A stretch of DNA of 50,132 nt from Armatimonadota bacterium. Lineage in GTDB: Bacteria; Sysuimicrobiota; Sysuimicrobiia; Sysuimicrobiales; Kaftiobacteriaceae. The number at the start of each line of letters is the position of its first letter. The first letter of the stretch is position 1. This document shows, piece by piece, positions 1,320-50,051 of the stretch. A program made the position numbers and the translations under genes. A model generated the notes under the pieces. That model searched no databases. It saw only the letters and a list, made by a program, of their open reading frames with translations, and was not told where the DNA came from. The stretch lies in the NCBI GenBank assembly GCA_020028455.1, contig JAHZOA010000005.1:1-50132 (forward strand), in the 5' to 3' direction.

Positions 1320-2891
1320 TCAGTGACGAAAGCGGCGGATGCCGGTGAAGACCATGGCCATGTCGTGCTCGGTCGCGGCAGCGATGGCTTCCTCGTCGCG
1401 GACTGAGCCGCCCGGCTGGATCACAGCTGTGACTCCCGCGCGCGCGGCCTCATCGACGCCGTCTCGAAACGGGAAGAAGGCGTCTGAAGCCAGGACGCTC
1501 CCCTTCGCTCGATCGCCGGCGCCCTTCACAGCAATAATTACGGAGCCGACGCGGTTTGGTTGACCACCGCCGATGCCGACGGTGGCGACGTTCTTCGCAA
1601 GGACGATCGCATTAGACCTGACCCACTTCACGACTTTCCATGCGAACAGCAGATCCTCCATTTCCTGCGGCGTCGGGGAACGCGGCGTGACAACGCGCAG
1701 CGGGAACTCGTCGAGATCCCTCGCATCCGCGTCCTGCACGAGTATGCCGCCGGAGATCGATCGAAACTCGCGTGATGGATCGGGTCGCTTCCATCCGGCT
1801 TCAAGCAGTCGGAGATTCGGCTTGCGTTTGAACACCAATCTGGCTTTCTCAGAAACGGCCGGCGCGATGACGGCTTCAGTGAAGATCTGAGTGACGGCCT
1901 GGGCCGTCTCTTCGTCGATCTCTCGATTGAACGCGACGACCCCACCGAACGCCGAGACCGGATCGCACGCGTGCGCGGCGGTGTAGGCTTCGTGAGCGGT
2001 TTCTCCCACGGCGGTCCCGCACGGCGCGGCGTGTTTGACGACCGTAGCGGCCGGGCGGACGAACTCGTGAACCAGCTCCCAGGCCGCACCCAGATCGGCG
2101 AAGTTATTAAAGGAGAGCTCCTTTCCTTGGAGCTGCGTCGCAGCGGCCACGGTGCCAGAGACATCGTGTTCCCCTACATACAGGGCGCCCCGCTGATGCG
2201 GGTTCTCTCCATAGCGAAGATCCTTCAGTTTCCGATATGGGAGCGTGAGCCGCTCGGGGAACGCCCTCGATCCTGCAAAATATGTCGCGATCGCAGCATC
2301 GTAGGCCGCCGTTCTCGCGAACGCGGCACGGGCGAGGCGCCGCCGGCTCTCCTCTGAGATCCCACCTGTTCGATCGAGTTCAGTGAGAACATCTCGATAT
2401 TGGTCGGGGCTACTGACGACCGCTACGCGCGCCCAGTTCTTCGCCGCCGCTCGAAGCAGGCTGACACCACCGATGTCGATGAGTTCGAGGGCTTCTTCCA
2501 TGGGAGCCGTCGCGCCGGTTCGCTCGAATGGATACAAATCCACGACGACGAGATCGATTGGTTCCAGTCCCAGACTCTGAAGCTGAGACTCATGGGCCTT
2601 GATCGGGCGGGCCAGAATCCCGGCGAAGATTGCGGGGTGAAGCGTCTTGACCCGGCCGTCGAGAATCTCTGGAAACTTGGTAATGTCTTCAATCTTCGTT
2701 AGGGAAAGTTCCGCGCCGGCGAGCGCTGTTGCCGTGCCTCCGGTCGCGATGAGCTCGATGTCGAGCTTGGCAAGCGCAGTCGCGAACTCCACAAAGCCTG
2801 ACTTGTCAGAGACGCTCAGCAGCGCGCGGCGGACGCGGATGGTCGCAGGTCGTTGGTCATGGGTCGTGGGAAGGACCACTGGGTCACTCAC
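1320..2891 (-). CDS. purH: bifunctional AICAR transformylase/IMP cyclohydrolase
   Basis: [48 protein letters not shown] start overlaps the purN stop. Confidence 0.97.
2841..2868. repeat. 4x heptamer array GGTCRYN (single arm) inside the purH 5' end
   Basis: ggtcgca ggtcgtt ggtcatg ggtcgtg; encodes TTHDQRPAT. Confidence 0.7.
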
Positions 2892-3556
2892 CGGCTCACC
2901 TCGCTCGCCACTGATTCCCGCTTTCGCGCTTCCACAATCCCAACCTTTCGTCCCTCAATCAGCAACCGGCCCTCGGCGAAGAGATGAATGGCCAAGGGAT
3001 ACAATCGGTGTTCCTCCTCGGCGATGCGCGCGCCGAGCGACGACGGTGTGTCATCCTCTTGTACTCGCGCCACGGCCTGGAGAATGATCGGCCCGCCGTC
3101 TGGTGTCTCATCGACGAAATGCACCGTGCAGCCCGAGATTTTCATCCCGGCACTGAGGACGGCTTCGTGCACGCGCTCGCCATACATCCTCCGTCCTCCG
3201 AACAGCGGAAGCAACGAAGGGTGAATATTCATGATACGGCCTGCGAATTGTCTGACGAACGCCGGGCCAAGGATGCGAAGCCAGCCGGCCAGGCAGACGA
3301 GGTCGACGGAGTACGCGCGCAGTGTCTCGGCCAGTCGCGCCTCAAAGGTTTCGCGGGTTGGGAACTCACGGTGATCGAGCAGAATCGCGGGAACACCCGC
3401 CCGCCGCGCCCGCCACAACGCGTGCGCGCCCGGTTTGTTTGAGACGACCACGACGACCTCACCTGGAATCTCCCGGCCGGCGCAGGAATCCATAATCGCC
3501 TGCAGATTCGTCCCCTCGCCCGACGCGAGGACGGCAATCCGGATCCCCTCAGGCAC
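2888..3556 (-). CDS. purN: phosphoribosylglycinamide formyltransferase
   Basis: IAVLASGEGTNLQA, NIHPSLLP, GCTVHFV..DGGPII. Start moved to GTG 3556 (SD GAGGAG upstream). Confidence 0.95.
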   Translation of the reverse strand: MPEGIRIAVLASGEGTNLQAIMDSCAGREIPGEVVVVVSNKPGAHALWRARRAGVPAILLDHREFPTRETFEARLAETLRAYSVDLVCLAGWLRILGPAFVRQFAGRIMNIHPSLLPLFGGRRMYGERVHEAVLSAGMKISGCTVHFVDETPDGGPIILQAVARVQEDDTPSSLGARIAEEEHRLYPLAIHLFAEGRLLIEGRKVGIVEARKRESVASEVSR

Positions 3557-4661
3557 CCAGATCCACTCCTCTCTCGCCGGGGACGATCTCACCGATCACC
3601 CACGCTTCTGCGCCATTTGCTTTGCACAGGTCCACAGCCACGCCCGCGCGCGGCCCAGGCACGACCGCGATCATCCCCACGCCCATGTTGAACGTTGAGA
3701 GCATCTCTTCAACTGGGATCTTCCCGGCGTTCTCGAGGATGCTGAAAATCGCGGGCACCGGCCAGGCGCCGGCCCTGACGCGCGCCCGGCACCCGTCGGG
3801 GAGAATTCGCACGAGGTTGCCAGGGATTCCACCACCTGTGATGTGCGCCGCGCCACGGAGGTGACCCGCGGCGGCCAGTGCGAGGACGGGCCTCCGGTAC
3901 GATCGGTGGGGTCTCAGGAGTACTTCGCGCCACGTCGTTCCTAGTTCTGGAACCCTGTCCCCCAGCGACCAGCCGCGCTGTGCAAGCACGGCGCGTGCGA
4001 GCGTATACCCATTTGTCTGCAACCCCGCCGCGACCATACCGATCAGAACATGACCGGGTTTGATGGAAGAACCATCGATGATGGCGGACCGTTCAACGAC
4101 ACCGATGACGCACCCGACGATGTCGATGCCCTGGGGTGTGTAGACTCCCGGCATCTGGGCCGTTTCCCCGCCGATCAGCGCCACGCCCTCGTCGCGGCAC
4201 GCGGCACTCATGCCGTCAAGCACCTGAGCAGCGGCTGATGGCTCGAGACGTGCGGCCGCAATGTAGTCGAGCATCAGGAGCGGAGCCGCCCCGAGAACCG
4301 CGACATCATTCACGCCATGTACAACCACATCTCGGCCGGCGAGATCGAGCCGTCCGGCTTCTGCGGCAAGCAGCGCCTTGGTCCCAACCCCATCGATGGT
4401 GCTCACGAGGACGGGATCGGAGTAGCCTTTCAAATGGAACAGGCCGCTGAAGTGACCAAGATCCCCCAGCACACGGGTCGTGAACGTGCTGCGGATTGTC
4501 CGGCCGACGGTTTCCAGCAGCTTGGCAGATGCCTGCCGATCCACTCCTGTGTCTTTGTAGGTCAGCCATTCGACTCGCCCACGTTCGGGCTCGCTCATGG
4601 CCTTCGGCCGCACCGAGTCGAATGCTCTGAGCGAACGGAGTGAGTCGAAGGGCTCACTCAT
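3549..4661 (-). CDS. purM: phosphoribosylformylglycinamidine cyclo-ligase (AIR synthase)
   Basis: TY..GVD, DGVGTK, GGETA.MP, AHITGGG, FNMGVG. Start at ATG 4661 (overlapping the purF end) or ATG 4598 inside the repeat. Confidence 0.95.
   Translation of the reverse strand: MSEPFDSLRSLRAFDSVRPKAMSEPERGRVEWLTYKDTGVDRQASAKLLETVGRTIRSTFTTRVLGDLGHFSGLFHLKGYSDPVLVSTIDGVGTKALLAAEAGRLDLAGRDVVVHGVNDVAVLGAAPLLMLDYIAAARLEPSAAAQVLDGMSAACRDEGVALIGGETAQMPGVYTPQGIDIVGCVIGVVERSAIIDGSSIKPGHVLIGMVAAGLQTNGYTLARAVLAQRGWSLGDRVPELGTTWREVLLRPHRSYRRPVLALAAAGHLRGAAHITGGGIPGNLVRILPDGCRARVRAGAWPVPAIFSILENAGKIPVEEMLSTFNMGVGMIAVVPGPRAGVAVDLCKANGAEAWVIGEIVPGERGVDLGA
4566..4653. repeat. dispersed structured repeat, copy 1 (CCATTCGACTCG...GTCGAAGG family)
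   Basis: Shares blocks CCATTCGACTCGCC, GGCTCGCTCATGG, CGAGTCGAATG, CTGAGC and GTCGAAGG with 19913-19995 and 38601-38700. Confidence 0.9.
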
Positions 4662-6087: not shown

Positions 6088-8300
6088 GAGAACACCTCAC
6101 GGAGTGATTCGTAGGCGTCGCTCATTTCCTCGATCGAGAGGTCGATCATTGGCCTAGCATCTGGACCGGCGATACTCAACCGGCTTCCGCCAATACGGCC
6201 GAGCACCACAAGCTCGATGCCCCCATGATTTGCAGCCAGAATCTGAAGATCGGGCAATCTATCAGGCGACACCGATACGACGACTCGCGAAGGAGCCTCT
6301 CCGAACAGCGCGACCTCAGCTCGATGGTCATAAGGCAAGGTCACTGCTACACCGACCCTGCCTGCGATTGCGCTCTCGGCGAGCGCGACGGCGATTCCAC
6401 CATCTGAGCAATCGTGGGCAGATCTCACTAGCCCACTCACGATGGCCTCGCGCACCGCGGCGAGTATGCTTGCGTGGGTGGTTAGATCGACGTCTGTCGG
6501 TCGCCCGCGTGAGAGACCGTGGATAAGCTCAAGGAAGTAGCTCGCAGCCAGATCGGGCGCGCTGCTCCCTAACAGAACAACCACATCGCCTTCCGTCTTG
6601 AACGACTGGGTGGCAATCTGCGCTACGTCCCGGACCAACCCCACCATCGCGACGACGGGCGTCGGCGGAACAAGCCCTTCGGGAGACTCATTGTAGAAAG
6701 ACACGTTTCCACCGACGACTGGAATCTGCAGCGCACGGCAAGCATCGGTAATCCCCATAACGGCCTGGCGAAAGGTCCAGAACACTTCCGGGTCTTCAGG
6801 ATTGCCAAAGTTCAAGCAATCGGTCACACCCAACGGCTCTGCGCCCACGCAGGCGAGATTCGCAGCAGCCTCAGCGACAGCCAGCTTGGCGCCGCGGTAC
6901 GGATCGAGCGCGCATAGCCTGCCGTTCCCATCAACTGTGATGGCCACTGCCTTGGGCGGCGATTCATGGATCCGTAGCACCGCGGCACCTGCCCCACCGG
7001 GTGGCACCACTGTGCGGATCTGCACCATGTGGTCGTACTGCTCAAACACGGCGCGCTTGGCAGCTACATCGCTGCCGCGCAGGAGACTCATCAGGGCCGA
7101 TCCAGGATCGACTGTGGGCAGCACATCGGGCATGATCCACTGCTCAGCCAGTTCCGGCGGCTCGCATGCCGCGGGGCGGTACGCTGGAGCCTCGGCAAGC
7201 GCGTACGGCGGGAGTGATACAACAGGGCTGTCGCGATACTCAACCCGCAGTTCTCGATCGGCGGTTACATAACCGATGACTGCCGCTTGCAGTCCCCAAC
7301 GCCGGAAGATTGACGAGATCCGGTTCTCGGATCCACTGCGGACAACCAGGAGCATGCGCTCCTGCGACTCAGACCTGAAGATCTCATCCGCACGCATCGA
7401 AGTTTCGCGCAGCGGCACGCGGTCCAGGTCGATGATCATCCCTACCCCACCGCGTGCCGACATTTCACTGGTTGCGCACGTGAGACCAGCCGCGCCCATA
7501 TCCTGAAGCGCCACAACATCGCCCGTGCCCAGCGCCTCGAGCGTTGCCTCGATCAGCAACTTGCCGGCAAGCGGATCACCGATCTGCACAGACGCGCGGT
7601 CCTCGTGCTCGGATGCTTCGTGTAGTTCCTCCGAGGCAAAGGCTGCGCCGCCAATGCCGTCCCGGCCTGTCCTGGCGCCGGCATACAGGACGGGGTTTCC
7701 CGGCCCCGCTGCACGCGACCGCGCGATGCGATTGTGCCTCAGGAGGCCGAGGCAGGCCACGTTGACGAGCGGATTGTCACGGTACCCGGGGTCGCAGAGG
7801 ATCTCACCGGCTACCGTCGGCACACCGACACAGTTGCCGTAGGCGGCGATGCCCGCGACGATTCCCGTCGCGATCCGGCGCGATTTTGGATCGGTCAACG
7901 GACCGAATCGCAGTGAGTCAACGAGCGCGATCGGCCGCGCGCCCATCGACAGAATGTCCCTGATAATCCCGCCGATGCCGGTGGCGGCGCCGTTGTACGG
8001 ATCGACCGCACTCGGATGGTTGTGGCTCTCCATCTTGAATGCCACAGCCCAGCCATCGCCGATGTCAATGACGCCCGCGTTCTCGCCCGGTCCCTGGAGA
8101 AGATGGGGGGCAGAACTGGGTAGCGATTGGAGTGTCAGTTTGGAATGCTTATAGCCGCAGTGTTCCGACCACATGACGCCAAACAACTTTAACTCCAGAG
8201 GCGTGGGGTCTCGACCGAGGCGGCGGACGATTTCGTCGTACTCGGATCGGGTGAGGCCTACGGCCTCGGGGCTCAGCGTCGAAGGTGAGAGAGTTCTCAA
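6084..8300 (-). CDS. purL: FGAM synthase subunit PurL (small form)
   Basis: [49 protein letters not shown]. Confidence 0.97.
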
Positions 8301-9010
8301 CGGAGAGCCTCGGCCCGGGAACGCGGAAGCGCGGGAACGCGGGAGCGCGATGTGACATATTCGATCACTGCCTCGAATATCAATCGTCCGTCGGTCGATC
8401 CCAGGATCGCTTCGGAAGCTCGTTCGGGGTGAGGCATCAACCCGACGACATTGCCCGCCTTATTGCACACACCGGCTATGAACCGTGCTGAGCCGTTCGG
8501 GTTGGCGTCCTCTGCGTATCGAAACACCACCTGGCGCTCGATATCATCAAGCAAGTCCTTGGGTGCGAAGTAGTTACCCTCCCCGTGGGCGACCGGCATC
8601 TGCAGGATCTGACCCTCCCGCAGATTCCAGGTGAACGGTGTCTTTGTCGACTCGACACTCATCAAGACCTGCCGGCATCGGAATTGGAGGCTCTGATTCC
8701 TCAACATGGCTCCCGGCAGCAGGCCCGCTTCGAGGAGAACCTGGAATCCGTTGCAGATGCCGAGCACCGGTTTTCCCGACGCCGCAAATGACTTTACTGA
8801 GGGCATGATCGGAGACGTCGCGGCCACAGCCCCCGCCCTAAGGTAGTCACCATACGCGAACCCGCCGGGGAGGACAACGCAATCCACGTCGTCGAGTAAT
8901 GAATCACCGTGCCAGAGCTCCACGACGTCTTGAGCTAAAACATTGCGCAAGACGTGAATGCAGTCGTGGTCACAGTTGCTGCCGGGGAAGATGACGACGC
9001 CGAAGCGCAT
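8297..9010 (-). CDS. purQ: FGAM synthase glutaminase subunit
   Basis: FPGSNC, PGGF.YGDYLR, GICNGFQ, MPHPER. Start ATG 9010 overlaps the purS TAA. Confidence 0.96.
8317..8348. repeat. 4x octamer array GGRARCGC (single arm) in the purQ 3' end
   Basis: gggaacgc ggaagcgc gggaacgc gggagcgc; encodes the [11 protein letters not shown] tail. Confidence 0.7.
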
Positions 9011-9267
9011 TATGACGGCCTCCGGGAGGGCAACGCATCTGTTTCGATTTTCCATTCCTCGATAAGTGGATTGGCCAAGAACCGGTCACACATCGCACTA
9101 ATTTCATCGACTGAAGCCTCGTCAGGCATTGTGATCTCGATGTGCTTGCCGACCCGGACCTCGGAGACGCCCTCGTAGCCCAGAGCATGCAGCCCCTGGC
9201 GGACAGCTTGCCCTTGTGCATCGAGTACTCCCGGCTTGAGCGTGATGACGACCCGTACAGTGGTCAT
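9010..9267 (-). CDS. purS: FGAM synthase subunit PurS
   Basis: LKPGVLD.QG, VRVGK, LANPLIE. Confidence 0.95.
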
Positions 9268-10181
9268 ACGAGTTTTCCCGTTAGCCGGGCAAAGGTCTCC
9301 AGATACCGTTGCCGCGTCGCTTCGACGACATCGTCCGGAAGTGATGGCACCGGGGGCTCATGATTCCACCCGGCCTGGTTGAGGTAATCGCGAACGAACT
9401 GTTTGTCGAACGACGCGAGCGATTGAGGGTACTGTGCCGCGTCCCAGTAGCGTGACGAGTCGGGCGTCAGCGCCTCGTCGATCAACACAATCTGATCATC
9501 GGCAAGACCGAACTCGAATTTCGTGTCGGCGAGGATAAGTCCAACCTGCCGGGCGTGGGCGGCCGCCCGCCAGTACAAGGTCAGGCTCAACTCCCGCAGG
9601 GTCTGAGCCATCTCCCTGCCGACCAGGTCTTCCATCTCTGCGAACGTGATGTTTTCGTCGTGGCCATGGCTGGCCTTCGTGGCCGGCGTGAAGATGGGCT
9701 GAGGAAGCACATCGCCGTTCCTCAATCCCCTGGGCAGAGGTTCGTCGGCCACCGCTCCTGTGCGGCGGTATTCATCCCACGCTGAGCCTGTGATGTACCC
9801 GCGAACGACACACTCAACGTCGATGCGCTCACACCTTCGGACGAGCATCGTACGGCCCTCGAGAAGAGTGCGGTCGACGTCAGCGAGATCCTCAACAGCT
9901 TCAGAGATCTCATCTACGTCGGTCGTAATCATGTGGTTCGGAACGATATCCGGCGTGAAATCGAACCAAAATTCTGAAAGTTGGGTGAGAATCCGCCCTT
10001 TCCCGGGAATTGGCGTTGGAAGAACATGGTCGAAGGCCGAGAGGCGGTCGGTCGCGACAATCAATAGATTTCCATCTGCCTCATAGACATCACGCACCTT
10101 GCCGCGCCTATATAAAGGAAGAGACAGATTCGTTTCCAGGACTGCGCGTGAATCGTGAGCGGTGAATGGTGAATGGATCAT
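9264..10181 (-). CDS. purC: SAICAR synthase
   Basis: GKVRDVY, DRLSAFD, ECVVRGY, DTKFEFG, DEALTPDSSR, DKQFVRD. Confidence 0.97.
   Translation of the reverse strand: MIHSPFTAHDSRAVLETNLSLPLYRRGKVRDVYEADGNLLIVATDRLSAFDHVLPTPIPGKGRILTQLSEFWFDFTPDIVPNHMITTDVDEISEAVEDLADVDRTLLEGRTMLVRRCERIDVECVVRGYITGSAWDEYRRTGAVADEPLPRGLRNGDVLPQPIFTPATKASHGHDENITFAEMEDLVGREMAQTLRELSLTLYWRAAAHARQVGLILADTKFEFGLADDQIVLIDEALTPDSSRYWDAAQYPQSLASFDKQFVRDYLNQAGWNHEPPVPSLPDDVVEATRQRYLETFARLTGKLV
10148..10175. repeat. 4x heptamer array GTGAATG-like (single arm) inside the purC 5' end
   Basis: gtgaatc gtgagcg gtgaatg gtgaatg; encodes HSPFTAHDS directly after the start. Confidence 0.7.
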
Positions 10182-12798: not shown

Positions 12799-13326
12799 TC
12801 AGGTGCTCCTGACCTCAATCTTGCGCGCCATGCCTGCCTTGAAATCTCGCAGTCGTTTGTTCAGCTCAGTGTCCCCGACTGCAAGAATTTGAACGGCCAG
12901 GATCGCGGCGTTGCGCGCGCCCCAGCTACCGATTGAGACGGTCGCGACCGGAACGCCCGGTGGCATTTGTACCGTCGACAGCAGCGCATCCAATCCGCCG
13001 AGTCCGGTGGCCTCGAGGGGAACCCCGATCACCGGTAAGACGGTGCGGGCAGCCAGCGACCCTGCCAGGTGTGCCGCCCCTCCGGCCGCCGCAATCAGCA
13101 CGCGGATCCCGCGCTCCTCGGCAGTGCGAGCATATCGGTCTAGGAGATCCGGTGACCGGTGCGCCGATGCAACGACGATTTCATGTGGCACATCAAACTC
13201 GGTAAGTGTCTTCGCGGCATCTTCCACTACCGGACGATCGGAATCGCTGCCAAGGACGATGCCCACCAGCGGTCGTCGGTCGTGGGTCGTGGGTCGTGGG
13301 TTCTGTAGGCTCGTAGTCTCGTCCAT
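12799..13326 (-). CDS. purE: N5-CAIR mutase
   Basis: GSDSD, SAHR, AAHL.G, PVIGVP, VQMPPGVPVATV. Confidence 0.96.
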   Translation of the reverse strand: MDETTSLQNPRPTTHDRRPLVGIVLGSDSDRPVVEDAAKTLTEFDVPHEIVVASAHRSPDLLDRYARTAEERGIRVLIAAAGGAAHLAGSLAARTVLPVIGVPLEATGLGGLDALLSTVQMPPGVPVATVSIGSWGARNAAILAVQILAVGDTELNKRLRDFKAGMARKIEVRST

Positions 13327-13392
13327 CTATCGATTCCCCTCCGTAGTCGCGGCAAGTTCTGTCCTACGACCTACGACCAACGACCTACGACC
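13271..13392. repeat. inverted heptamer arrays (GGTCGTG)4 ... (CCTACGA)4 straddling the purD/purE junction
   Basis: Arms at 13271-13298 and 13363-13392 are mutually complementary; both lie inside coding sequence. Confidence 0.85.
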
Positions 13393-14622
13393 GATGTCTG
13401 TTCGGAAGTGCATGGCTTCGAAATGAATGTGAGAGATCGCCGAGTACGCACGATCGGCGGCCTCTGCCAGGGTTTCCGCCCTGCCGACCAGATTCAGGAC
13501 TCGACCGCCCGCGGTCACCAGACGGCCATGTGAAATGGCCGTTCCAGCGTGGAACACGATGGCGTCATCAACATCGCCTAGTCCGGAGATCGGATGACCT
13601 GTCTCGATGGGACCAGGATAGCCTCGGGATGCGATCACGACGCAGGCGGCAGAACCCGGAATCCAACTCAGACGGGGGGTGCCTCCATCTAACAGATCGA
13701 CGATCGTCTCGGCCAGATCGCTTTCGAGCAGAGGCAAGATCGCCTGCGTCTCAGGGTCGCCGAAGCGGCAGTTGAACTCCAGCGCCTTCGGCCCATCGTC
13801 CGTGACCATCACACCGGCATACAGGACACCGCAGTATGGCCGCCCTTCGTCCGCCATTACAGCCACAGCGGGCTCGATGATCGTCTCAACGACCTCCGCC
13901 GCCACGGAGAGCGGAATCATTCCGGGAGCAATCGCCCCCATGCCGCCGGTGTTTGGTCCGCGGTCGTCCTCCAGGGCGCGCTTGTAGTCTTGCGCCGGGA
14001 GCAGCGGCACGATGCCCCCCGGCCCAACTAGGGCGATGACGCTCGCCTCGTAACCCTGCAGGCGCTCTTCGATTAGGATCCTCGCACCCGCGCTGCCGAA
14101 CTTGCGGGCTACCATGAAGTCGAAGACTGCTCGCTCCGCCTCCGCGCGAACTTCAGTCACGACCACGCCCTTGCCGGCGGCGAGGCCGTCCGCTTTGATG
14201 ACAAGCGGCCGGCCTGCGTCGCGGATGTACCTCAGCGCCTCGGAACTTTCCGTGAACACTTCAAATGGTGCCGTGGGGATCTCGTGACTCGCCATTAACT
14301 GCTTGGCAAACACTTTGCTGCCTTCGATCTCGGCGGCGGCCTGCGACGGACCAAAAATCCGCAATCCCCGCGCGCGAAAGATATCCACCAGACCTGATAC
14401 CAGCGGGGCTTCTGGCCCGACGATGGTGAAGTCGACGGAAAGCTCCGACGCCGCGTGGGTTAAGGCCTCAAGGTTTGAGGGGTCAATCGGAAGACACTGG
14501 GCTAGAGCAGCGATGCCTGGATTTCCCGGTGCGGCGTAGACCTGTGCTGGGGTTTGACCCTGGCGAAGCTTCCACACCAGGGCGTGCTCCCTCCCCCCGG
14601 CACCAACGACCAAAACTCGCAA
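13327..14622 (-). CDS. purD: phosphoribosylamine-glycine ligase
   Basis: GAGGREHAL, KADGLAAGKGV, GPNTGGMG, RFGDPETQ, FHAGT; TTG start. Confidence 0.97.
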   Translation of the reverse strand: MRVLVVGAGGREHALVWKLRQGQTPAQVYAAPGNPGIAALAQCLPIDPSNLEALTHAASELSVDFTIVGPEAPLVSGLVDIFRARGLRIFGPSQAAAEIEGSKVFAKQLMASHEIPTAPFEVFTESSEALRYIRDAGRPLVIKADGLAAGKGVVVTEVRAEAERAVFDFMVARKFGSAGARILIEERLQGYEASVIALVGPGGIVPLLPAQDYKRALEDDRGPNTGGMGAIAPGMIPLSVAAEVVETIIEPAVAVMADEGRPYCGVLYAGVMVTDDGPKALEFNCRFGDPETQAILPLLESDLAETIVDLLDGGTPRLSWIPGSAACVVIASRGYPGPIETGHPISGLGDVDDAIVFHAGTAISHGRLVTAGGRVLNLVGRAETLAEAADRAYSAISHIHFEAMHFRTDIGRRSLVVGRRTELAATTEGNR

Positions 14623-14816: not shown

Positions 14817-16433
14817 CTACATCGGCGGCATCTGCGGCATTGCGGGCGTCCTCTCTCCCTCTTCTTCAGGCTTCTCCACCACCATTGCTTCGGTGGTAAG
14901 AAGTAGCGACGCGATGCTCGCCGCGTTCTGCAGAGCGGAGCGGACGACCTTGGCGGGATCCACGATGCCGGCTTTGCTCATATCCTCGAACTTCCCGCTT
15001 AGCACGTTGTAGCCGATCCCAGGCTTCTGCTCCTTCTGCTGCTCAACGATGAGCCAGCCTTCCTGGCCGGCGTTGACCGCCAGCTGGTGGGCGGGTTCAA
15101 GGAGCGCCTTCGTGACCAGGGCGACGCCAATCTTCTCGTCACCTTCGGCTTCAATCTTCTCGAGGGCTTTGACCGCCTGAACCAGGACGCTGCCGCCCCC
15201 CGGAACAACCCCCTCTTCAACTGCGGAACGTGTCGCGCGCAGCGCGTCCTCAGTGCGGGTCTTGCGGTACTTGAGCTCTACCTCGCTCGGCGCGCCAACC
15301 TTGATCACCGCCACGCCGCCGGAGAGCTTCCCGAGCCGCTCCTGCAGCTTTTCCTTGTCGTAGTCCGAATCCGTGTCCTCGATCTGCTTGCGCAACTGCC
15401 CGACGCGCTTCTGGATTGCGTCCTGGTTGCCGCCACCGCCCACGAGGATCGTCTCCTCCTTGCGGATGCGCACCTGCTTGGCGCGGCCGAGCTTGGAGAG
15501 ATCGATCGACTCGAGCTTCAAGCCGATTTCTTCGGAGATCACCTGGCCATTGGTGAGAATGGCGATGTCTTCGAGGATTGCCTTCCGCCGCTCACCGAAT
15601 GCGGGCGCCTTCACGGCTACGGACTGCAGCGTGCCTCGCAGCTTGTTCACGACCAGCGTCGCGAGGGCCTCCCCCTCTAGGTCCTCCGCGATGATCATAA
15701 GCGGCCGGTTAACCTGTGCGATCTTCTCCAGGACTGGAAGGAGATCTTTGACCGCGGAGATCTTCTTGTCGGTGATTAGTATGAAGGGATCCTCAAGGAC
15801 CGCTTCCATCTTTTCAGGATCGGTAACGAAGTACGGAGAGATGTAGCCTTTGTCAAACATCATGCCTTCGACGACCTCGACCGTCGTCTCGATCCCCTTG
15901 CTCTCTTCTACTGTGATGACGCCGTCCTTGCCGACCTTGTCCATGGCATCCGCAATCAGCGTGCCGATGTCGGGATCGTTTGCAGAAATGCTGGCAACGG
16001 ACTGAATCGCCTCTTTGGTCTCAACCGGCTTGCTGACCTTGCGGATCTCCTCGATGGCGACGGCGACCGCCTTATCAATGCCTCGCTTCAGCGACATCGG
16101 GTTTGCGCCTGCGGCAACCATCTTGAACCCATCCCGAACCAGGGACTGAGCCAGGATCGTCGCGGTCGTCGTACCGTCGCCGGCCACATCCTCGGTCTTC
16201 GTCGCGACCTCACGCACGAGCTGCGCGCCGGCGTTCTCGAAGGGATCCTCCAGTTCGATCTCCTTCGCCACCGTCACGCCGTCATGAGTGATCGTCGGTG
16301 AGCCAAACTTCTTTTCAATTACGACGTTGCGGCCCTTCGGTCCGAGCGTGATCCTCACGGCGTCGGCCAGCTTGTTGACGCCGCGCTCCATCGCCCTCCG
16401 GGCCGTCTCGTTATAGGCTAAGATCTTCGGCAA
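14817..16433 (-). CDS. groL: chaperonin GroEL
   Basis: [36 protein letters not shown]; TTG start after GGAGG. Confidence 0.98.
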
Positions 16434-16456
16434 CTGCAGTCACCTCCATGAAGATT

Positions 16457-16531
16457 GTTGGCAGCTTGCAGCTTGCGGCTAGCAGAGTAGACAGGAGTTG
16501 GCTGCCAGCTGCATGCTGCCAACTGTTAGCT
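16457..16531. repeat. inverted heptamer arrays (TGCAGCT)n ... (GCTGCCA)n between groES and groEL
   Basis: ggcagct tgcagct tgcggct agcag ... gctgcca gctgcat gctgcca actgtta. Confidence 0.75.
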
Positions 16532-19438: not shown

Positions 19439-19946
19439 CTGCTTTCACAAGTGCCTCGGTGATGGCGATGTATCGCGATCCCTGGGGGATGAACGCAATC
19501 TCCCGCTCGTTCTCGCGATCCGTGAAGCGGATTTCGACCCACAGGTATGCGGAGGGAAGCATGCTCCGTATTTTCTCTGCCCACTCGATGACAACGACCC
19601 CGTCTCGCTCCAGGATCTCGTCAAAACCAATGTCCTCGATCTGTCGCGGGGCATCGAGCCGGTAGAGATCAACATGGGCAATCGAAACGGGTCCGGAGTA
19701 TTCTCTGACGAGCGTGAAGGTGGGACTGGCGAAATAGCCGGCCGCGCCTGCCCCTTGAGCGATCCCGCGGGTCAGGACCGTCTTCCCCGCACCGAGATCT
19801 CCCGACAGGGCGATCACATCGCCGGATCGCAGTAGGTGACCCAAACGCCGTCCCAAGGATTCAGTCTGCTCTGAGGTTGCTGTTCGGATGGCGTAGGTGG
19901 AAGGGGGCGTCCCCATTCGACTCGCCCGCAGTGCGGGCTCGCTCAT
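19419..19946 (-). CDS. tsaE: t6A biosynthesis ATPase TsaE
   Basis: GDLGAGKT, SPTFTL, HVDLYRL, IEWA. Start 19946 or 19916, both inside the repeat. Confidence 0.94.
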   Translation of the reverse strand: MSEPALRASRMGTPPSTYAIRTATSEQTESLGRRLGHLLRSGDVIALSGDLGAGKTVLTRGIAQGAGAAGYFASPTFTLVREYSGPVSIAHVDLYRLDAPRQIEDIGFDEILERDGVVVIEWAEKIRSMLPSAYLWVEIRFTDRENEREIAFIPQGSRYIAITEALVKADAHPRH

Positions 19947-19995
19947 GGCCTTCGGCCGCCGATGCGAGTCGAATGCCCTGAGCCTGTCGAAGGGC
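19913..19995. repeat. dispersed structured repeat, copy 2
   Basis: ccattcgactcgcccgcagtgcgggctcgctcatggccttcggcc...cgagtcgaatgccctgagcctgtcgaagggc. Confidence 0.9.
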
Positions 19996-23024: not shown

Positions 23025-23042
23025 GACTCTATTCTAACGCAA

Positions 23043-23085
23043 GGGGTCTGACCCCCAGGGGCCTGACCCTTGGGGGCCTGGCCCC
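23043..23085. repeat. three tandem 13-bp palindromes GGGGYCTGRCCCY (period 15)
   Basis: ggggtctgacccc / ggggcctgaccct / ggggcctggcccc. Confidence 0.75.
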
Positions 23086-29962: not shown

Positions 29963-30028
29963 GGTCGTAGGTCGTAGGTCGTAGATAGGACAATGATTTC
30001 CACGACCCACGACCTACGACCTACGACC
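29963..30028. repeat. inverted heptamer arrays (GGTCGTA)3 ... (YACGACC)4 at the hutU end
   Basis: Arms at 29963-29983 and 30001-30028; the hutU stop TAG lies in the array. Confidence 0.85.
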
Positions 30029-33955: not shown

Positions 33956-34050
33956 GGAATCAGGAAACAGGAATCAGGAATCAGGAACTGATTCAACAGG
34001 CGCGGGGAGGTTCCTATTTTCCTGTTTCCTGTTACCTGTTTCCTGTTTCC
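33956..34050. repeat. inverted heptamer arrays (GGAAWCA)4 ... (TTCCTGT)4-5
   Basis: Arms at 33956-33987 and 34011-34050, intergenic. Confidence 0.85.
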
Positions 34051-38600: not shown

Positions 38601-38700
38601 GTCCTTCGACTCGCTTCGCTCGCTCAGGACACCATTCGACTCGCATGCCAACTGGTCGAAGACCATGAGCGAGCCTGCTGCAGGCAGGCGAGTCGAATGG
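38601..38700. repeat. dispersed structured repeat, copy 3 (opposite orientation), sharing the tRNA CCA
   Basis: Minus strand ccattcgactcgcctgc...ggctcgctcatggtcttcgacca...cgagtcgaatgg..ctgagcgagcgaagcgagtcgaaggac. Confidence 0.9.
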
Positions 38701-38774
38701 TGGCGGCGGGGAGACTCGAACTCCCGACACCGCGGGTATGAGCCGCGTGCTCTGACCAACTGAGCTACACCGCC
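38698..38774 (-). tRNA. tRNA-Met(CAU), probably elongator
   Basis: GGCGGTGTAGCTCAGTTGGTCAGAGCA CGCGG CT CAT AC CCGCG GTGTC GGGAG TTCGAGT CTCCC CGCCGCC A CCA; 77 nt with encoded CCA. Confidence 0.95.
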
Positions 38775-38812: not shown

Positions 38813-38816
38813 AGGG

Positions 38817-38895
38817 GACTCGTGATTCGTGACTCGTGATTCGTGACTCGCAACTGCAGGATTTGGCCTTACGAGTCACTAGTCACAAGTCACGA
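38817..38895. repeat. inverted heptamer arrays (GAYTCGT)5 ... (ACNAGTC)3
   Basis: Arms at 38817-38851 and 38871-38895. Confidence 0.85.
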
Positions 38896-38899
38896 TGTT

Positions 38900-39364: not shown

Positions 39365-39443
39365 TCCCTGCACGGTGACCACCCCGTTGTAGAACACTCT
39401 GGTCTAAATACGTATCCAGGGGGCCTGCAAGTTCTGCCAACCT

Positions 39444-39650: not shown

Positions 39651-39697
39651 TTCGTCACCTCGGTGGGGGTTAAGGCCAGTCTTGCGAGCAACACATC

Positions 39698-39725
39698 ATT
39701 TTATCAAGGGCTGAGACCCTGTCAA
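39698..39725 (-). promoter_or_regulatory. rpoZ promoter
   Basis: TTGACA (39725-39720), 16 nt spacer, TAAAAT (39703-39698). Confidence 0.7.
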
Positions 39726-39755
39726 TGGTAAAAGGCGGGTGCTAGAGTAGGGCGC

Positions 39756-44100: not shown

Positions 44101-44130
44101 CCTCGCACTCTCCGGCGTGCTCTTCTCTTG

Positions 44131-45129: not shown

Positions 45130-45140
45130 CCCTCAAATAC

Positions 45141-45216
45141 GGGATAAGGGGATAAAGGGATAAGGGGATAAATTGCGCATTAACCTTATCCCTTTATCCC
45201 TTTCTCCCTTTATCCC
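45141..45216. repeat. inverted octamer arrays (GGGATAAR)4 ... (TTATCCCT)4
   Basis: Arms at 45141-45172 and 45186-45216; the second arm supplies the pxpBC tail and TAA stop. Confidence 0.88.
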
Positions 45217-46819
45217 GCAGTTCCGTAAAGAGCGCTTCTCGCGCTCGAAGCGCGCTTATTGCTGCTTCCACTGTTGTTCGTTCGAAGCGCACAAGGGTTC
45301 CCGGTCGCGCCTGACCTACCAGCGGAAGATCGACCGTGGCCACGACCCCGATCTTTGGATACCCGCCCGTGGTCGGTCCGTCGGCGGAGATCACGATGGG
45401 TTTGCCATCCTGGGGAACTTGTATCGCGCCGGGAAGCATCGCGTCAGAAAGCATCTCCCTCTCAACGCGCGCGATCGCAGGGCCATCCAGACGAATCCCG
45501 GCGCGGTCACTCTGCACCGTGACGCGGAAGGTAGAGTTGTAGAATCCGTCGGCTCCATCGACGAACCACTTCTCCTGTGGGCCGGGAATGACACGAAGGC
45601 CGATCTCGTCAGAGGGGACTCGCATGATCTCCGACGGCACCCTGGTGTTGATGGGTCGTCCGCGCACGCGGCGCACGCCGAGCATGTCTCCCCTGACGAG
45701 TCGCCGTCCGACGCGCCCTGCAGCAAACGCCGACGCGCTTCCGAGAACGGTCCGTGCTTCAATCCCACCAGCGAGCGCGAGGTACGCCCACGTCCCCTTT
45801 CGCGGTGCACCGAACCGGATCTCTTGTCCCGAACTCACTCGTACTGGCTGCCACAGTTCAATCTCTGCTCCGTCCAGCGTAGCGGTGAGGTCTGCACCCG
45901 CCACCGCCACCCAATGCTCATCATGCATCCTGATGACAGGGCCGGGCGCTGTGCATTCGATCGCCGGGGCGCCGGGGTCATTCCCAACCAAGATATTGGC
46001 AACTCGGAACGCATCCCGGTCGATTGCGCCGGAACCAGGCATCCCGAGATGGCGATACCCTGGGCGGCCGAGATCCTGCACGGTCGTGAAGAGCCCAGGT
46101 TCGAGCACCTCGACGGCAGGGTGAACCGGCGCACGGAGAAGCGGAACGGCGTCCTCGGCCAGAAACTCTGCGTGCTTGACGGCAACAAAACGGACACGAT
46201 CGCCGGGGCGGAACAGGATCGGATCTGTCTGGGAAGGATCATAGATGGGCATCGGTGTGCGGCCGATCAGCCTCCACCCACCCGGAGTCTGCAATGGATA
46301 GATGCCGCTCAGAGCGTCCGCGATCGCCACAGACCCCACCGGCACGCGAGTGCGGGGCGTGGCCAGCCTGGAGACACGGAGCGCTTCAGGCAGCAAACCG
46401 AGATACGGAAATCCCGGCGTAAACCCCAGCATGTAGACCGTGTATGCCGCCCGTGAATGAACCGCGATCAACTCTCGCGCGCTTAGACCGCGCGTCGCCG
46501 CCACCTCGTCGAAGTCCGGTCCAGCATCACCGCCGTAGACAACCGGGACTTCCAGGTCACGACCCGCCTGTGGCGCTTCGGGGGCAACCCTGGGCGCGAG
46601 ATCGGCCGCGGCGGCAACGACGGCATCCCGGCTGCCGTCCAATGGATCGATCACGATGAGCACCGACCGCAAGGCGGGTATCGTCTCTTGGACGCCGCGC
46701 ACATCATGCATCGCACGTGCCAGCGCCCGAGCCCTCCCGTTGGCCAGCGGAGAGAGCTCATCGTCGAACTCGACGAGGATCGCGCGATCGCCGAACGGTC
46801 TTACAACAGGCTCCCTCAT
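45194..46819 (-). CDS. 5-oxoprolinase PxpB-PxpC fusion (allophanate hydrolase 1+2 / KipI-KipA type)
   Basis: GF.PGFPYL, GIYP..TPGGW.LIGRT, TTVQDLGR.G, SDR.G.RL, GAIQVP..G.P, TTGGYPKI. Confidence 0.9.
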   Translation of the reverse strand: MREPVVRPFGDRAILVEFDDELSPLANGRARALARAMHDVRGVQETIPALRSVLIVIDPLDGSRDAVVAAAADLAPRVAPEAPQAGRDLEVPVVYGGDAGPDFDEVAATRGLSARELIAVHSRAAYTVYMLGFTPGFPYLGLLPEALRVSRLATPRTRVPVGSVAIADALSGIYPLQTPGGWRLIGRTPMPIYDPSQTDPILFRPGDRVRFVAVKHAEFLAEDAVPLLRAPVHPAVEVLEPGLFTTVQDLGRPGYRHLGMPGSGAIDRDAFRVANILVGNDPGAPAIECTAPGPVIRMHDEHWVAVAGADLTATLDGAEIELWQPVRVSSGQEIRFGAPRKGTWAYLALAGGIEARTVLGSASAFAAGRVGRRLVRGDMLGVRRVRGRPINTRVPSEIMRVPSDEIGLRVIPGPQEKWFVDGADGFYNSTFRVTVQSDRAGIRLDGPAIARVEREMLSDAMLPGAIQVPQDGKPIVISADGPTTGGYPKIGVVATVDLPLVGQARPGTLVRFERTTVEAAISALRAREALFTELRDKGRKG

Positions 46820-47637: not shown

Positions 47638-47639
47638 GG

Positions 47640-48734
47640 CTAGCGGTAGATGCGCGCTACCCGGGGACCAATGCCGGTCAAAACCTCATACGAGATCGTC
47701 TGAGCCTTCGAGGCGACCTCGTCCACGCTGATTCTCTCTCCGAAGAGCTCGACTTCGTCGTCCACGGAAACGTCGGCGTTCGCCACGTCGACGGTCAGGT
47801 AATCCATGCTCACGCGCCCAACGATGGGGTGCCGTCGATCCCGGATGATCACTTCGCCTTTCGCGCCCGCCAGCCGAGGGTAGCCATCCGCGTAGCCGCA
47901 CGCGACCGTCGCGATGGTCGTTTGCGTTCGTGGGCGAAAGGTGGCGCCATATCCCACTGCCGTACCCGCGGACACGTGTGTGACCCGGACCACGCAGCTC
48001 TTTAGTCTCATGACGGGACGAAGGCCAACCTTATGTTGAAGATGCTGGGCTGGAGAGATTCCATACATCGCGATCCCGATGCGGACCAGATCATAGTGGG
48101 CCGCAGGATATGCGATCGCGGCCGCACTGCTGGCTGCGTGAATCAGGATCTTCGGAAATGCGCGGCGCGCCGTGACAACGGCCGGAGCGAATCGTGCCAG
48201 CTGTTCCTCCGTATAGTGCCGGTCGGGCTCATCAGGGCTGGAGAGATGTGTGTAGCAGCCTTGGAGAGGGATGCCGGCCTCTTTCAGTCTGGAAATTGCC
48301 TGGTCGGCATCGCGGGCCATGATGCCAAGACGGGTCATGCCGGTATCGATCTTGAGGTGAATAGGCGCGCGCGGAAAGCGGCGGAGCCGCAACAAAGCTT
48401 CGAGGAATTCGGGGGAACCGATCGTGATGCTGATCTTGTGCTTTGCCGCGGCGGAAAGTTCACTTGCTCCCACTGGCCCAAGGACGAGAATGTGCACCTT
48501 GATTCCCGCCTGGCGGAGCGCCGACCCCTCCTCGAGCGTCGCTACCCCGAGCCACGTCGCGCCGGCCCGGACCGCGGCCTTCGCCACGTCGACCGCCCCG
48601 TGCCCGTAGCCGTCGGCTTTCACCACTGCCATGACTCGGCAGGACGGCTGCAGATGCTTACGGATTTCTCGAAGATTGTGCTGAACGGCAGACCGATCGA
48701 TTTCTGCCCAGGCACCCCGCTGACCAGGACTCAT
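47640..48734 (-). CDS. alr: alanine racemase
   Basis: AVVKADGYGHG, HLKIDTGM.RLG, GYADG, GRVSMD, TISYE. ATG 48734 overlaps the upstream TGA. Confidence 0.95.
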   Translation of the reverse strand: MSPGQRGAWAEIDRSAVQHNLREIRKHLQPSCRVMAVVKADGYGHGAVDVAKAAVRAGATWLGVATLEEGSALRQAGIKVHILVLGPVGASELSAAAKHKISITIGSPEFLEALLRLRRFPRAPIHLKIDTGMTRLGIMARDADQAISRLKEAGIPLQGCYTHLSSPDEPDRHYTEEQLARFAPAVVTARRAFPKILIHAASSAAAIAYPAAHYDLVRIGIAMYGISPAQHLQHKVGLRPVMRLKSCVVRVTHVSAGTAVGYGATFRPRTQTTIATVACGYADGYPRLAGAKGEVIIRDRRHPIVGRVSMDYLTVDVANADVSVDDEVELFGERISVDEVASKAQTISYEVLTGIGPRVARIYR

Positions 48735-49807
48735 CCTGGATAGCGCCGATACCACTCGTGGCCGTTTTGCACCTGAACCTGATCCCAGCCGCCAATGCTC
48801 TTGTGTGTAAACCAGGGCCGCGCACGATCGGCAACGGCATTGGCCCGTTCGAAATTGGCGAGGCCCTCTGACGTGAGGAGGTCGCGCATGCGCTTTTCAT
48901 GAGGATACGTGGAGACCACTCCTTGCCAGATCGCCCGACCGCACAGAAACCCGCTGGCTCCTGCCTCCACAGCCAGCTCCAGGCTTGCGATAAATTCCTG
49001 GATGTCGACGCCGCCGCTGAGAATCACCCATGGCCTCCCGGCCGCGGCATCAAGTTCGCGGCAGAATGCACGGACCTCACCGAGATCATACACCGCGGGC
49101 CGTTCTTTCTTATCGAATGTCCCGTGACGAAATTCCTGAGTGTATTTCAGGTCGCAAGGAAACTCAAGCTTCATCACGTCAACCTCGTAGGCTCCACTGG
49201 AAAATTCGCGCGCGGCCTCGATCACGTGGTGCGGCCGCTTCCTCGCAAATTCTGGCGTGTCAGTCGTTGCCTGATCAACCGAATACGTGACGACTTCGAG
49301 AAGGAACGGGATGTCCTCGCGGACGCACTCATCGGCCACGGTCCGCACCAAACGCTGCTGGTGGCCTCGTACCTCGCTGGAGGCCTCAGGAGTGTAGTGG
49401 ATGAGCAACTTCACAGCGTTGGCACCAGCACGCTTGGTCTTGGCCACCGACCATCCATCGATCAGTCGGCCCTTGCGCTCCCTCCCCCCAGGGCCCGCCG
49501 GATCATACCCTGACTCCTCGGATGCCACGAGAATGCCGACACGGTGAGGGATAATCTTGACGGCTCGCGGCAACGCGTACACAGGATCGATGAGCGTTGC
49601 CGTAGAGGGAGCCGCGAGGACCTCAATGATGAGCTGTTTTGTCTTCGCCATCTCCTCATGTGTGACGTCCTCGGGCTCGCGTCCAGTGACCTTCGCAAGC
49701 GCCGCTTGCAATGATGCCCGCTGGTCAACGGCCAACATCTTAAATCGTCCGGCGGCGTCGGCCAGTCGCAGCAAATTCACCAGCTTTCCGCTAGAGAACA
49801 TCGCCAA
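48731..49807 (-). CDS. class I tagatose-1,6-bisphosphate aldolase family (LacD/YihT-like)
   Basis: MLAVDQR, AVKLL..Y, PF.LE, DV.KLEFP, PWVILSGGV, GASGFLCGRAIW. Confidence 0.88.
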   Translation of the reverse strand: MAMFSSGKLVNLLRLADAAGRFKMLAVDQRASLQAALAKVTGREPEDVTHEEMAKTKQLIIEVLAAPSTATLIDPVYALPRAVKIIPHRVGILVASEESGYDPAGPGGRERKGRLIDGWSVAKTKRAGANAVKLLIHYTPEASSEVRGHQQRLVRTVADECVREDIPFLLEVVTYSVDQATTDTPEFARKRPHHVIEAAREFSSGAYEVDVMKLEFPCDLKYTQEFRHGTFDKKERPAVYDLGEVRAFCRELDAAAGRPWVILSGGVDIQEFIASLELAVEAGASGFLCGRAIWQGVVSTYPHEKRMRDLLTSEGLANFERANAVADRARPWFTHKSIGGWDQVQVQNGHEWYRRYPG

Positions 49808-49823
49808 ACCTGCCTCCGCTACC

Positions 49824-50051
49824 GTCTACTGGGTCTACCGAGTCTTCCGAGTCTTATGAGTCTACTGGGTCTGCACCCTCTCTCCGTGAGTCTACAGAGT
49901 CTGTGAGTCTACAGAGTCCCATGAGTCTACCAGGATTCTTCAGAATTATCGTTAGACTCGGAAGACCCATTAGACACGGTCGACTCATAGACTCAAGTTA
50001 GGAGGGTGCAGACTCAGAAGACACTGTAGACCCAGTAGACTCGGTAGACTC
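49824..50051. repeat. ~230-bp imperfect palindrome built from 9-mer arrays (GAGTCTACN)n ... (NGTAGACTC)n
   Basis: About 11 units left and 10 units right. The interruption GGGTCTGCACCCTC is mirrored by GAGGGTGCAGACTC; centre near 49940. Confidence 0.9.

Follow-up and report, generated by a model that had tools for sequence, protein, structure and literature searches.

Genes and palindromic elements in the window

The stretch analysed here, called the window throughout, comprises 50,132 nucleotides of the genome of an Armatimonadota bacterium (GenBank assembly GCA_020028455.1, contig JAHZOA010000005.1, positions 1 to 50,132). It is contig C2 of an assembly (G000) of 2,343,781 bp in 270 contigs, with 62% G+C and a completeness of 94%. 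The host loci, which include the pur operon, groES/groEL and hutU, are all encoded on the minus strand, and at the junctions between their genes lie palindromic elements built from two inverted arrays of short tandem units with a loop in between. These palindromes may well be the gene-less members of a family of cassettes of the intervening sequence (IVS) type, in which a TIGR02436 (PF05635) gene is enclosed by arrays of the same kind.

Seven two-armed structures as well as single arms at 2841, 8317 and 10148 had been described from the letters of the window alone (the sequence-only reading), and all of them (7/7 and 3/3) were recovered with Tandem Repeats Finder (TRF) and/or an inverted-repeat finder followed by direct inspection (Table 1). 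The same reading was right in that the window does not contain a TIGR02436 gene. The element at 16457-16523 is placed between the groES stop codon and the groEL Shine-Dalgarno site GGAGGTGA, which is conserved as a ribosome-binding site, and the long element at 49824 contains 11.7 copies of GAGTCTACN at 62% matches. All elements of the window are found between protein or tRNA genes and none in an rRNA helix. Folded as RNA, six of the structures reach free energies between -35.5 and -57.7 kcal/mol (z-scores from -3.5 to -8.8), a stability equalled by 0 of 200 shuffles. At the gathering score of Rfam 15 the whole window only matches 16S rRNA (1-393) and one tRNA, and the elements match no family.

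Table 1. Repeat elements of the window and TIGR02436 genes of the genome (window coordinates unless a contig is named)
Feature	Unit	Position (arms)	Loop (nt)	Context or score
Two-armed element	GGTCGTN	13271-13301 / 13363-13392	61	between purD and purE, both on the minus strand
Two-armed element	about TTGGCAGC/TGCAGCT	16457-16479 / 16501-16523		least regular of the seven
Two-armed element	GGTCGTN	29963-29984 / 30000-30028	15	between urocanase (hutU) and ASCH-domain gene
Two-armed element	GGAAWCA	33956-33987 / 34018-34050
Two-armed element	GAYTCGT	38817-38850 / 38874-38893		between BsuPI-like gene and tRNA
Two-armed element	GGGATAAR	45135-45222; arms 45141-45171 / 45186-45216		outer foot AACTGC...GTA; neighbours are a carboxyltransferase gene and a pyridoxal phosphate-dependent enzyme gene
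Long two-armed element	GAGTCTACN (9 nt)	49824-49930 / 49952-50051		after DeoC-like gene
Single arm	GGTCGTN	2848-2870		purN/purH junction
Single arm	CGGGAACG	8316-8349		purQ/purL junction, within 3' end of purQ open frame
Single arm	GTGAATG	10148-10176		purB/purC junction
TIGR02436 gene		C70:6575-6895		101.5 bits against a cut-off of 24
TIGR02436 gene		C41:2793-3116		83.7 bits against a cut-off of 24; one internal TAA

TIGR02436 genes are enclosed by inverted arrays

The genome contains two TIGR02436 genes, on the contigs C70 and C41, and both are located between inverted arrays. The cassette protein matches PF05635 with 2.3e-29. On C70 the gene is preceded by (GGAAACA)x4.6 and followed by (TTTCCTG-type)x4.1, and on C41, where the layout was read by eye only, it stands between (AGGGCTT)x3 and (AAGCCCT)x4.4. 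Both units recur as gene-less palindromes, that of C70 in the GGAAWCA element at window position 33956 and that of C41 on contig C123. The cassette, as the full-length form of the element, is ~0.4-0.6 kb long, and its gene is enclosed by two arrays in inverted orientation, each with about four units of 7-9 nt.

In the 41 genomes of relatives that were examined, TIGR02436 is present in 15 of the 21 other genomes of the same taxonomic family and was not found in any of the 19 genomes that represent six further families of the order. Matching inverted arrays were found on both sides in 23 of the 25 strong-hit cassettes of the family (C41 is outside that scan), while the five weak TIGR02436 hits have no flanking arrays. 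A scan of species genomes with a subset of 8 sequences, the alignment of 21 sequences being too diverse, added 24 loci, ten of which are duplicates; they belong to Desulfobacterales, Nitrospira, Omnitrophota, a Firmicutes metagenome-assembled genome, Alphaproteobacteria and others. Taken together there are 39 distinct cassettes. Matching inverted arrays flank 29 of them on both sides. Another nine either show one array or more or are truncated at the end of a contig, and one is without any. The sequence-only reading had stated that TIGR02436 genes are often flanked by such arrays, and the link is borne out both in this genome and in 29 of the 39 cassettes. GxxExxY genes (TIGR04256), which it had named as well, were found neither in this genome nor in any of 94 genomes of the phylum.

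The association extends to plasmids of cultured bacteria, where five of the eight loci examined (from 24 matching records) are cleanly flanked: two in Calothrix, one in Nostoc edaphicum between nrdB and nrdA, and one each in Geminocystis and Azospirillum. Of the remaining three, the loci of Pseudanabaena (between cas6 and cas4) and of Gemmatirosa are complex, and one has non-matching units. The Pseudanabaena locus, on plasmid pPg_01 of P. galeata (L234), has arrays of 11-16 copies, with a palindrome upstream of the four-helix-bundle gene and a downstream array in direct orientation.

Relative to the gene, the 5' arm ends 40-197 nt before the family match. The 3' arm begins at most 116 nt behind this match, to which it is directly adjacent in one cassette, and overall 359-609 nt separate the two arms. 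With respect to neighbouring genes, the cassette gene is found in mixed orientation, although these calls are based on open reading frames (ORFs) and are unreliable in GC-rich DNA.

The closest relatives with solved structures are Xcc0516 (2GSC) and 2RLD, whose PDB entries contain five chains each. Xcc0516 has been described as five four-helix bundles (a 2006 paper cited in PMC10053308), and PF05635 is homologous to Avd (PMC10053308) of the diversity-generating retroelements (DGRs), a pentameric, positively charged barrel that acts together with a reverse transcriptase (PMC6182149). Weak matches to bAvd are present in 16 of 21 cassette proteins. PF05635 genes had been noticed before in cas operons and in rRNA insertions, and were termed uncharacterised. 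The genome has a gene for RNase III, three RVT_1 genes and three Y1_Tnp genes. None of the three reverse transcriptase genes and three Y1_Tnp genes is flanked by arrays, for which reason a reverse transcriptase or Y1 transposase as array-flanked driver was rejected. No reverse transcriptase adjoins any of the cassettes.

The repeat unit follows the protein

In the tree of the cassette proteins, sister cassettes carry the same or a near-identical unit. Such sets are GCAGTCGC and GCGGTCGC; GGAAAAG and AGGGAAG; AGTTGGAA, AACGTTGA and GTTGAAG; TAAGTG and AAAGTG; CGTTCAT and CGTTGGT. Judging from their flanking genes, several sister cassettes represent insertions that are orthologous to each other. 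In one genus an 8-mer unit has become a 7-mer in both arms of orthologous cassettes, with the core GTTGAA being kept. The unit therefore co-diverges with the cassette protein.

Gene-less arrays also abound where a cassette bearing the same unit is resident. GGAAAAG arrays gave 74 and 73 matches in the two genomes with the respective cassette and at most 2 in each of 20 others, the reversed-pattern control being uninformative for this unit. For AGTTGGAA the two genomes that carry the cassette have 37 and 11 matches and a congener has 13, compared to no more than one in each of 19 others; the reversed-pattern control gave 0. The genome G017 has 59 matches to the GGTCGT-core pattern, and among those listed most are GGTCGTT, the unit of its own cassette. 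In samples of ~100 kb, two gene-bearing genomes have 2 and 5 inverted pairs, and six gene-less genomes, one of them from the same family and 99% complete, have none.

Array pairs across the genome

The repeats of the window belong to a large population. Periods 7, 8 and 9 are in excess in the TRF output of the whole genome (259, 227 and 282 of 1451 rows). With a period of 6-10 and at least 2.8 copies, 491 arrays were obtained. Within 300 nt, these combine into 99 inverted pairs (non-redundant) and only 3 direct ones. When the same contigs were simulated with a third-order Markov model, 34 arrays and not a single inverted pair resulted. The array pairs are thus real and far from chance, and paired arms are commoner than random placement would give, in line with what the sequence-only reading had supposed. 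By unit, the pairs are distributed over GGTCGTN (35), CGGGAACG (15), GGGATAAR (15), GTTGAAG (8), GAGTCTACN (5), GGAAWCA (4), GAYTCGT (3) and eleven smaller families. In addition there are 101 single arms with units of these families, 28 of which have a degenerate partner, in 28/28 cases on the geometrically correct side. The gene-less population amounts to 99 pairs and about 100 single arms whose units belong to the same families. As a background, metagenome loci retrieved with GroES contained no inverted pairs in 80 loci, which represent distant lineages only (at most 69% identity) and no close strains. One of these contigs, from an unrelated lineage (L220), has a single 7-mer array, AGCACCT x4, at 1035-1062, ~50 nt after groES.

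The placement of the pairs was determined with gene calls from a crude purpose-made ORF caller. Co-directional genes flank 81 of the 92 classifiable pairs, compared to 1501 of 1942 junctions in the background (binomial p = 0.012), and seven and four pairs are at convergent and divergent junctions, respectively. The arrays start closely behind the upstream stop codon (median 4 nt, mode 4 nt). In 28 of 95 cases the upstream ORF as called extends beyond the point where the element starts; with two exceptions, it does so by a few to ~66 nt. The sequence-only reading had placed all elements of the window at boundaries between co-directional housekeeping genes, which has to be corrected for the element at 38817, located between a protein gene and a tRNA. 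Several upstream ORFs also run into the elements, such as purD, which extends 22 codons into the element at 13271. As 90% of the genome is coding, the junction placement may reflect nothing else than tolerated insertion sites.

The open frames of purD (13327-13395) and purQ (8297-8400) run into repeat elements, and the same is observed for purE in the congener G001, whose frame reads through a single arm. Because the purD and purQ frames continue into the elements, the arrays encode short C-terminal tails, and the original stop codons of the two genes seem to have been displaced. At the groES/groEL junction, the longest groEL ORF begins at an ATG within the ribosome-binding region (window 16433-16450). 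Comparison with 20 relatives suggests that the true start is probably the TTG near 16437, a few nucleotides downstream of GGAGGTGA.

Anatomy of the elements

The elements follow one plan. The median number of TRF copies per arm is 4.1 (interquartile range (IQR) 3.9-4.3), with 168 of 198 arms between 3.5 and 4.9, and the median element length is 86 nt. Direct counting gave exactly four cores in 27/34 and 32/34 arms of the GGTCGTN family and in 15/15 and 12/15 arms of the GGGATAAR family. Each unit is composed of a conserved 6-7-nt core, with 94-95% identity between the arms, and 1-3 variable positions, the spacer. The arms have a polarity, with more G than C in the 5' arm of 90 of the 99 pairs, and in no family is the order of the arms opposite. 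All unit families have in common an outer foot, whose left part is AAnnRC and whose right part is GYnnTT (G 0.81, T 0.67 and 0.61; 67 elements). It tends to occur on both sides of gene-less elements; in the few cassettes inspected by eye, without counting, it was clear only at the 3' side of the gene.

The spacer positions were analysed by comparing the two arms of an element with arms re-paired among elements of the same family. In the GGTCGTN family these positions are complementary less often than expected (0.206 compared to 0.401 ± 0.038, 0 of 2000 shuffles being as low), and this is also the case for GGGATAAR (0.237 compared to 0.375 ± 0.060, P = 0.0095). The other two families tested showed no significant departure from re-paired arms. 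A G:C pair at the spacer was found in 0 of 131 cases in the GGTCGTN family. The stem is therefore a series of four short helices split by weak or mismatched positions. Shifting the arm registers by one unit or reversing them gave spacer complementarity at chance level only, and thus there is no hidden register. Folding does not distinguish the strands: the mean free energy is -53.6 kcal/mol for the sense and -54.3 kcal/mol for the antisense RNA, with 219 and 240 G-U pairs, respectively (p = 0.27).

The loops have a median length of 24 nt (IQR 19-33.5) and are mutually unrelated. Among the loops of at least 14 nt there is one significant loop-to-loop match, and the comparison of loops with cassette interiors gave none. 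The proposal of the sequence-only reading that one conserved geometry is combined with exchangeable unit sequences accordingly stands, since the geometry is strict across many unit families with unrelated loops. Copied miniature transposable elements with inverted repeats (MITEs) were considered as a source and rejected, because the copies have no shared interior and because their flanks are inverted and not direct as in target-site duplications. The combination of strict geometry, many units and unrelated loops is not that of ordinary copied MITEs, and the near-complete lack of matches among loops (one) and between loops and cassettes (zero) indicates that the elements originated neither as deletion derivatives nor as copied MITEs.

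Alleles and turnover at orthologous junctions

The groES/groEL junction could be compared in 21 genomes of the family. Eight contain tandem-array palindromes with differing units, five have other hairpins, and eight have short array-free spacers. The units of the palindromes differ completely between the congeners G000 and G001 (G001 has ~74% nucleotide identity to G000 in the pur operon). Four genera have in common a right-hand remnant together with CGGGA-type units, which suggests one old insertion whose unit has been drifting in concert. The region downstream of the T2SS-F gene was compared in 14 genomes, of which five are gene-filled, two retain single-arm remnants, and seven have plain terminator-like hairpins. 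The units of the gene-filled alleles are GGAAGCA, CGACAACG, GCAGTCGC (twice) and GCGGTCGC. Array-free, array-only and gene-filled alleles, which the sequence-only reading had anticipated at orthologous junctions, are hence seen at groES/groEL and after the T2SS-F gene. The cassettes stay at the same junction across genera, and the elements have persisted for a long time while both arms changed in concert.

Within the pur operon, the arrays of G000 and G001 are not at the same junctions, and where one of them has an array the other has an overlapping junction, ATGA or TAATG. At purA/purB of G001 (C106, L142) there are two adjacent arrays, (GGGACCA)4 and (GGTTCCC)4, with similar but non-complementary units, which may represent either a palindrome with drifted arms or two independent single arms. 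G004 has clusters of palindromes with different units, nested or in tandem, beside its cassettes (on C10 after the T2SS-F gene, and on C9, L097 19432-19700).

Other repeats and genes

Several further features were recorded. A second, unrelated family of dispersed palindromes, CATTCGACTCGC...GCGAGTCGAATG, is present in the window at 4561-4657, 19914-19975 and 38630-38702; the copy at ~4560-4660 has more than 12 matches in the congener G001 at 73-89% identity. The third of these copies adjoins the tRNA gene at 38701-38774 (minus strand), which is 43 nt away from the GAYTCGT element. A third palindromic element, GTCATTGCGAGCGAAGCGAAGCAATC..., occurs in relatives, namely between purC and purS of G001 (C106, L142) and between groES and groEL of G009 (L046). 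Tandem repeats of 15 nt are found in the window at 23042-23085 (unit AGGGGCCTGACCCCC), and those of the GACCTGCTCCC type at C41:2154-2240 and C186:3430-3466, the C186 array being ~100 nt away from a Y1_Tnp gene. The contig starts inside a 16S rRNA gene (window 1-393, minus strand, model positions 1-381).

Interpretation of the palindromes

We favour, with moderate confidence, the explanation that the window palindromes are gene-less members of an IVS-type cassette family, in which the arrays are putative recognition sites of the Avd-like protein and the stem is a putative substrate of RNase III. The arrays are homogeneous within a genome, and the same core is found in dozens of dispersed copies while synonymous sites between the genera are saturated, which implies that something reads the core. 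Of the components, only the cassette protein varies together with the unit. Therefore, the arrays are probably recognition sites, in iterated form, of the Avd-like pentameric cassette protein. By analogy to the IVS of Coxiella, the stem is probably cut by RNase III.

The system could work as follows. The conserved 6-7-nt core, iterated at fixed spacing, would be read by the cassette's own protein, which together with host enzymes would keep and spread the arrays, similar to REPIN-RAYT systems except that the protein is not a transposase by its fold. When the host operon is read through, the arms would pair into a stem of 28-32 bp with a weak or mismatched position after every core, and RNase III would cut this stem as has been mapped in the Coxiella IVS. 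Such cutting could explain why an insert is tolerated between a stop codon and a ribosome-binding site without killing the operon.

A number of observations weigh against this explanation. GGTCGTN arrays are frequent in both G000 (142 matches) and G001 (43) although neither assembly contains the cognate cassette, and in G000 the three largest families (GGTCGTN, CGGGAACG and GGGATAAR, with the 35, 15 and 15 pairs given above) have no cognate gene in an assembly that is 94% complete. Ten of the 39 distinct cassettes are without a clean array pair. The four units per arm do not fit the five subunits of the pentamer. Given that folding has no sense-strand preference, selection may not act on the sense RNA at all. 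Finally, the related genomes are not independent, so that the co-occurrence counts overstate the support, and the samples of the positive genomes G004 and G010 were partly chosen near cassettes.

That most families of G000 are without a cognate gene could be better understood if the arrays arose by replication slippage and were selected as intercistronic hairpins that stabilise or punctuate the mRNA, and if the TIGR02436 gene were a passenger homing into the loops of palindromes that existed before. The unique loops and the existence of single arms and hetero-arm pairs agree with such an origin, two genomes of a single genus have cassettes after the T2SS-F gene whose units are quite different, and heptamers have been reported to be the commonest long simple repeats in many bacteria (PMC4679880, PMC4692102). 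We nevertheless regard slippage and homing as unlikely. The units co-diverge with the protein, a given unit abounds mainly where its cognate cassette is present, and the ~100-kb samples of gene-less genomes had no pairs at all; in addition, neither a fixed count of four nor the avoidance of spacer complementarity would be expected of free slippage. It is less likely still that the arrays are domesticated regulatory sites, at which a host or cassette protein would bind the arrays on the nascent RNA, compete with the stem, and in this way tune the stability or translation of the downstream cistron. The position a few nucleotides after the stop codon and upstream of the ribosome-binding site would be suitable for this function, as would the periodic weak positions of the stem with no G:C pair at the spacer and the persistence across genera. 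A conserved regulatory need is hard to reconcile, however, with close relatives having their elements at different junctions of the same operon. There is also no bias for the sense strand, and purifying selection alone could account for the placement in a genome that is 90% coding.

As one option, the sequence-only reading had taken the structures for empty footprints, left at operon junctions by a small cassette that comes and goes, in which case the gene-less palindromes would be scars of excision. Filled, array-only and empty alleles do exist at the same junction, and the loops differ between copies. But the genome contains 99 gene-less pairs and only two filled cassettes, no loop resembles a cassette interior, and cassettes have been retained at orthologous sites across genera. 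The foot motif, which tends to be present on both sides of gene-less elements while it was clear only 3' of the gene in the few cassettes seen by eye, does not fit either. The footprint is therefore not supported as the explanation of the palindromes, and we assign it a very low probability. The lowest is given to a retro-synthetic origin, in which the Avd-like protein and a reverse transcriptase would add short repeats, copied from a short RNA template, to the 3' ends on either side of a break. The product would be two inverted arrays whose G-rich strands run 5' to 3' towards the centre, with a filler loop between them. Such a process would account for the polarity of the arms, the fixed number of units, the unique loops and the concerted change of unit and period in both arms, and both the homology to Avd and the three RVT_1 genes of the genome are in its favour. 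However, no reverse transcriptase is beside any cassette and no arrays are beside the three reverse transcriptase genes, a template RNA was not identified, the arrays are stable between congeneric orthologues, and there is no bacterial system known to work in this way.

Relation to known systems

One close precedent is the IVS in the 23S rRNA of Coxiella burnetii, where a PF05635 (S23p) gene is located in the loop of a long stem with GACAGAT heptamers beside the ORF. These heptamers are present in two to three copies depending on the strain, RNase III cuts at the start of the first heptamer, and the IVS is regarded as a selfish element (PMC4990558). The 23S rRNA IVSs therefore share with the cassettes described here the PF05635 gene within a long stem and the tandem heptamers at its foot beside the ORF. 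In contrast, the elements of the present genome are situated between protein genes and not in rRNA helices, most copies are without an ORF, and there are ~100 copies per genome in many unit families.

The published description that comes closest concerns the intergenic heptamer arrays in convergent pairs, GGGAATC in Xanthomonas, where a genome has 70-75 such inverted pairs, and GGGGAYT in Nostoc (Rehm et al. 2015, PMC4692102). Their positions are largely conserved between species while the lengths vary, and they were read as G-quadruplex formers whose role was left open (PMC4692102). Like the present elements, the Xanthomonas-type pairs are tandem heptamer arrays on opposite strands, close together, intergenic, and with G-rich arm polarity. 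The differences are the many unit families found here, most of which are unable to form quadruplexes, and the cognate gene cassette. The main text of PMC4692102 does not contain a link to a PF05635 gene and has 0 occurrences of '23S', and the Xanthomonas strain of that study is also the source of Xcc0516. The TAACTGA repeats of the Beggiatoaceae are likewise intergenic tandem heptamers near start or stop codons (PMC4679880), and such heptamers are also found in cyanobacteria and Bacteroidetes (PMC4679880). They differ in that one and the same unit is repeated in direct orientation, only one inverted case being reported, and in that no gene is named as associated with them.

The population structure can be compared to REPIN-RAYT systems (PMC3337134, PMC3116915, 10.1101/2022.05.22.493013), which also consist of dispersed extragenic inverted repeats with a spacer and one cognate gene flanked by the same repeats, and which are also mostly inherited vertically, persist for long times and have lineage-specific repeat families. 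Here, however, the gene encodes an Avd-like four-helix bundle and not a Y1 (HUH) transposase, and the arms are tandem arrays instead of a single palindrome. The Avd of DGRs is a homologous pentameric four-helix bundle that binds nucleic acid and acts only with another enzyme (PMC6182149, PMC10053308). The cassette gene differs from it by standing alone between tandem arrays, with no adjacent reverse transcriptase, template repeat or variable repeat.

The sequence-only reading had regarded the elements as the best candidate for an undescribed system. This needs to be qualified because the paired arrays of Xanthomonas (PMC4692102) and the heptamers beside the S23p gene of Coxiella (PMC4990558) are both in print, but no account of the link between them was found. 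In the open-access literature, taken without supplements, no paper was found that connects PF05635/TIGR02436 genes with flanking inverted tandem arrays genome-wide; the TIGRFAMs/NCBIfam descriptions may state this connection. What emerges is a family of cassettes of the IVS type, whose gene-less members form a large population at operon junctions, together with a general association of gene and repeat.

Implications

Ever since the first reports on rRNA intervening sequences, the PF05635 family has been without a known function, and the heptamer excess of bacterial genomes has been unexplained likewise. The present analysis ties the two together and offers a testable function, namely that each protein binds its own repeat. 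The elements follow a rule by which they can be recognised: four cores per arm, the G-rich arm at the 5' side, a shared foot, and a mismatched spacer. They are located inside essential operons such as pur and groESL, where they probably shape mRNA processing, and they probably also break metagenome assemblies. In a wider sense, it is possible, though less likely than not, that PF05635 proteins are sequence-specific binders of iterated 6-7-nt cores and form together with the arrays a widespread, vertically persistent selfish or symbiotic system, similar to REPIN-RAYT but lacking a transposase, in which each lineage keeps its own hairpins. If this were true, one system would explain the heptamer excess of bacteria, the GGGAATC pairs of Xanthomonas, the tandem heptamers of cyanobacteria and the origin of the ORF-bearing rRNA IVSs, and the family would represent a natural set of small sequence readers, each of them matched to its own repeat.

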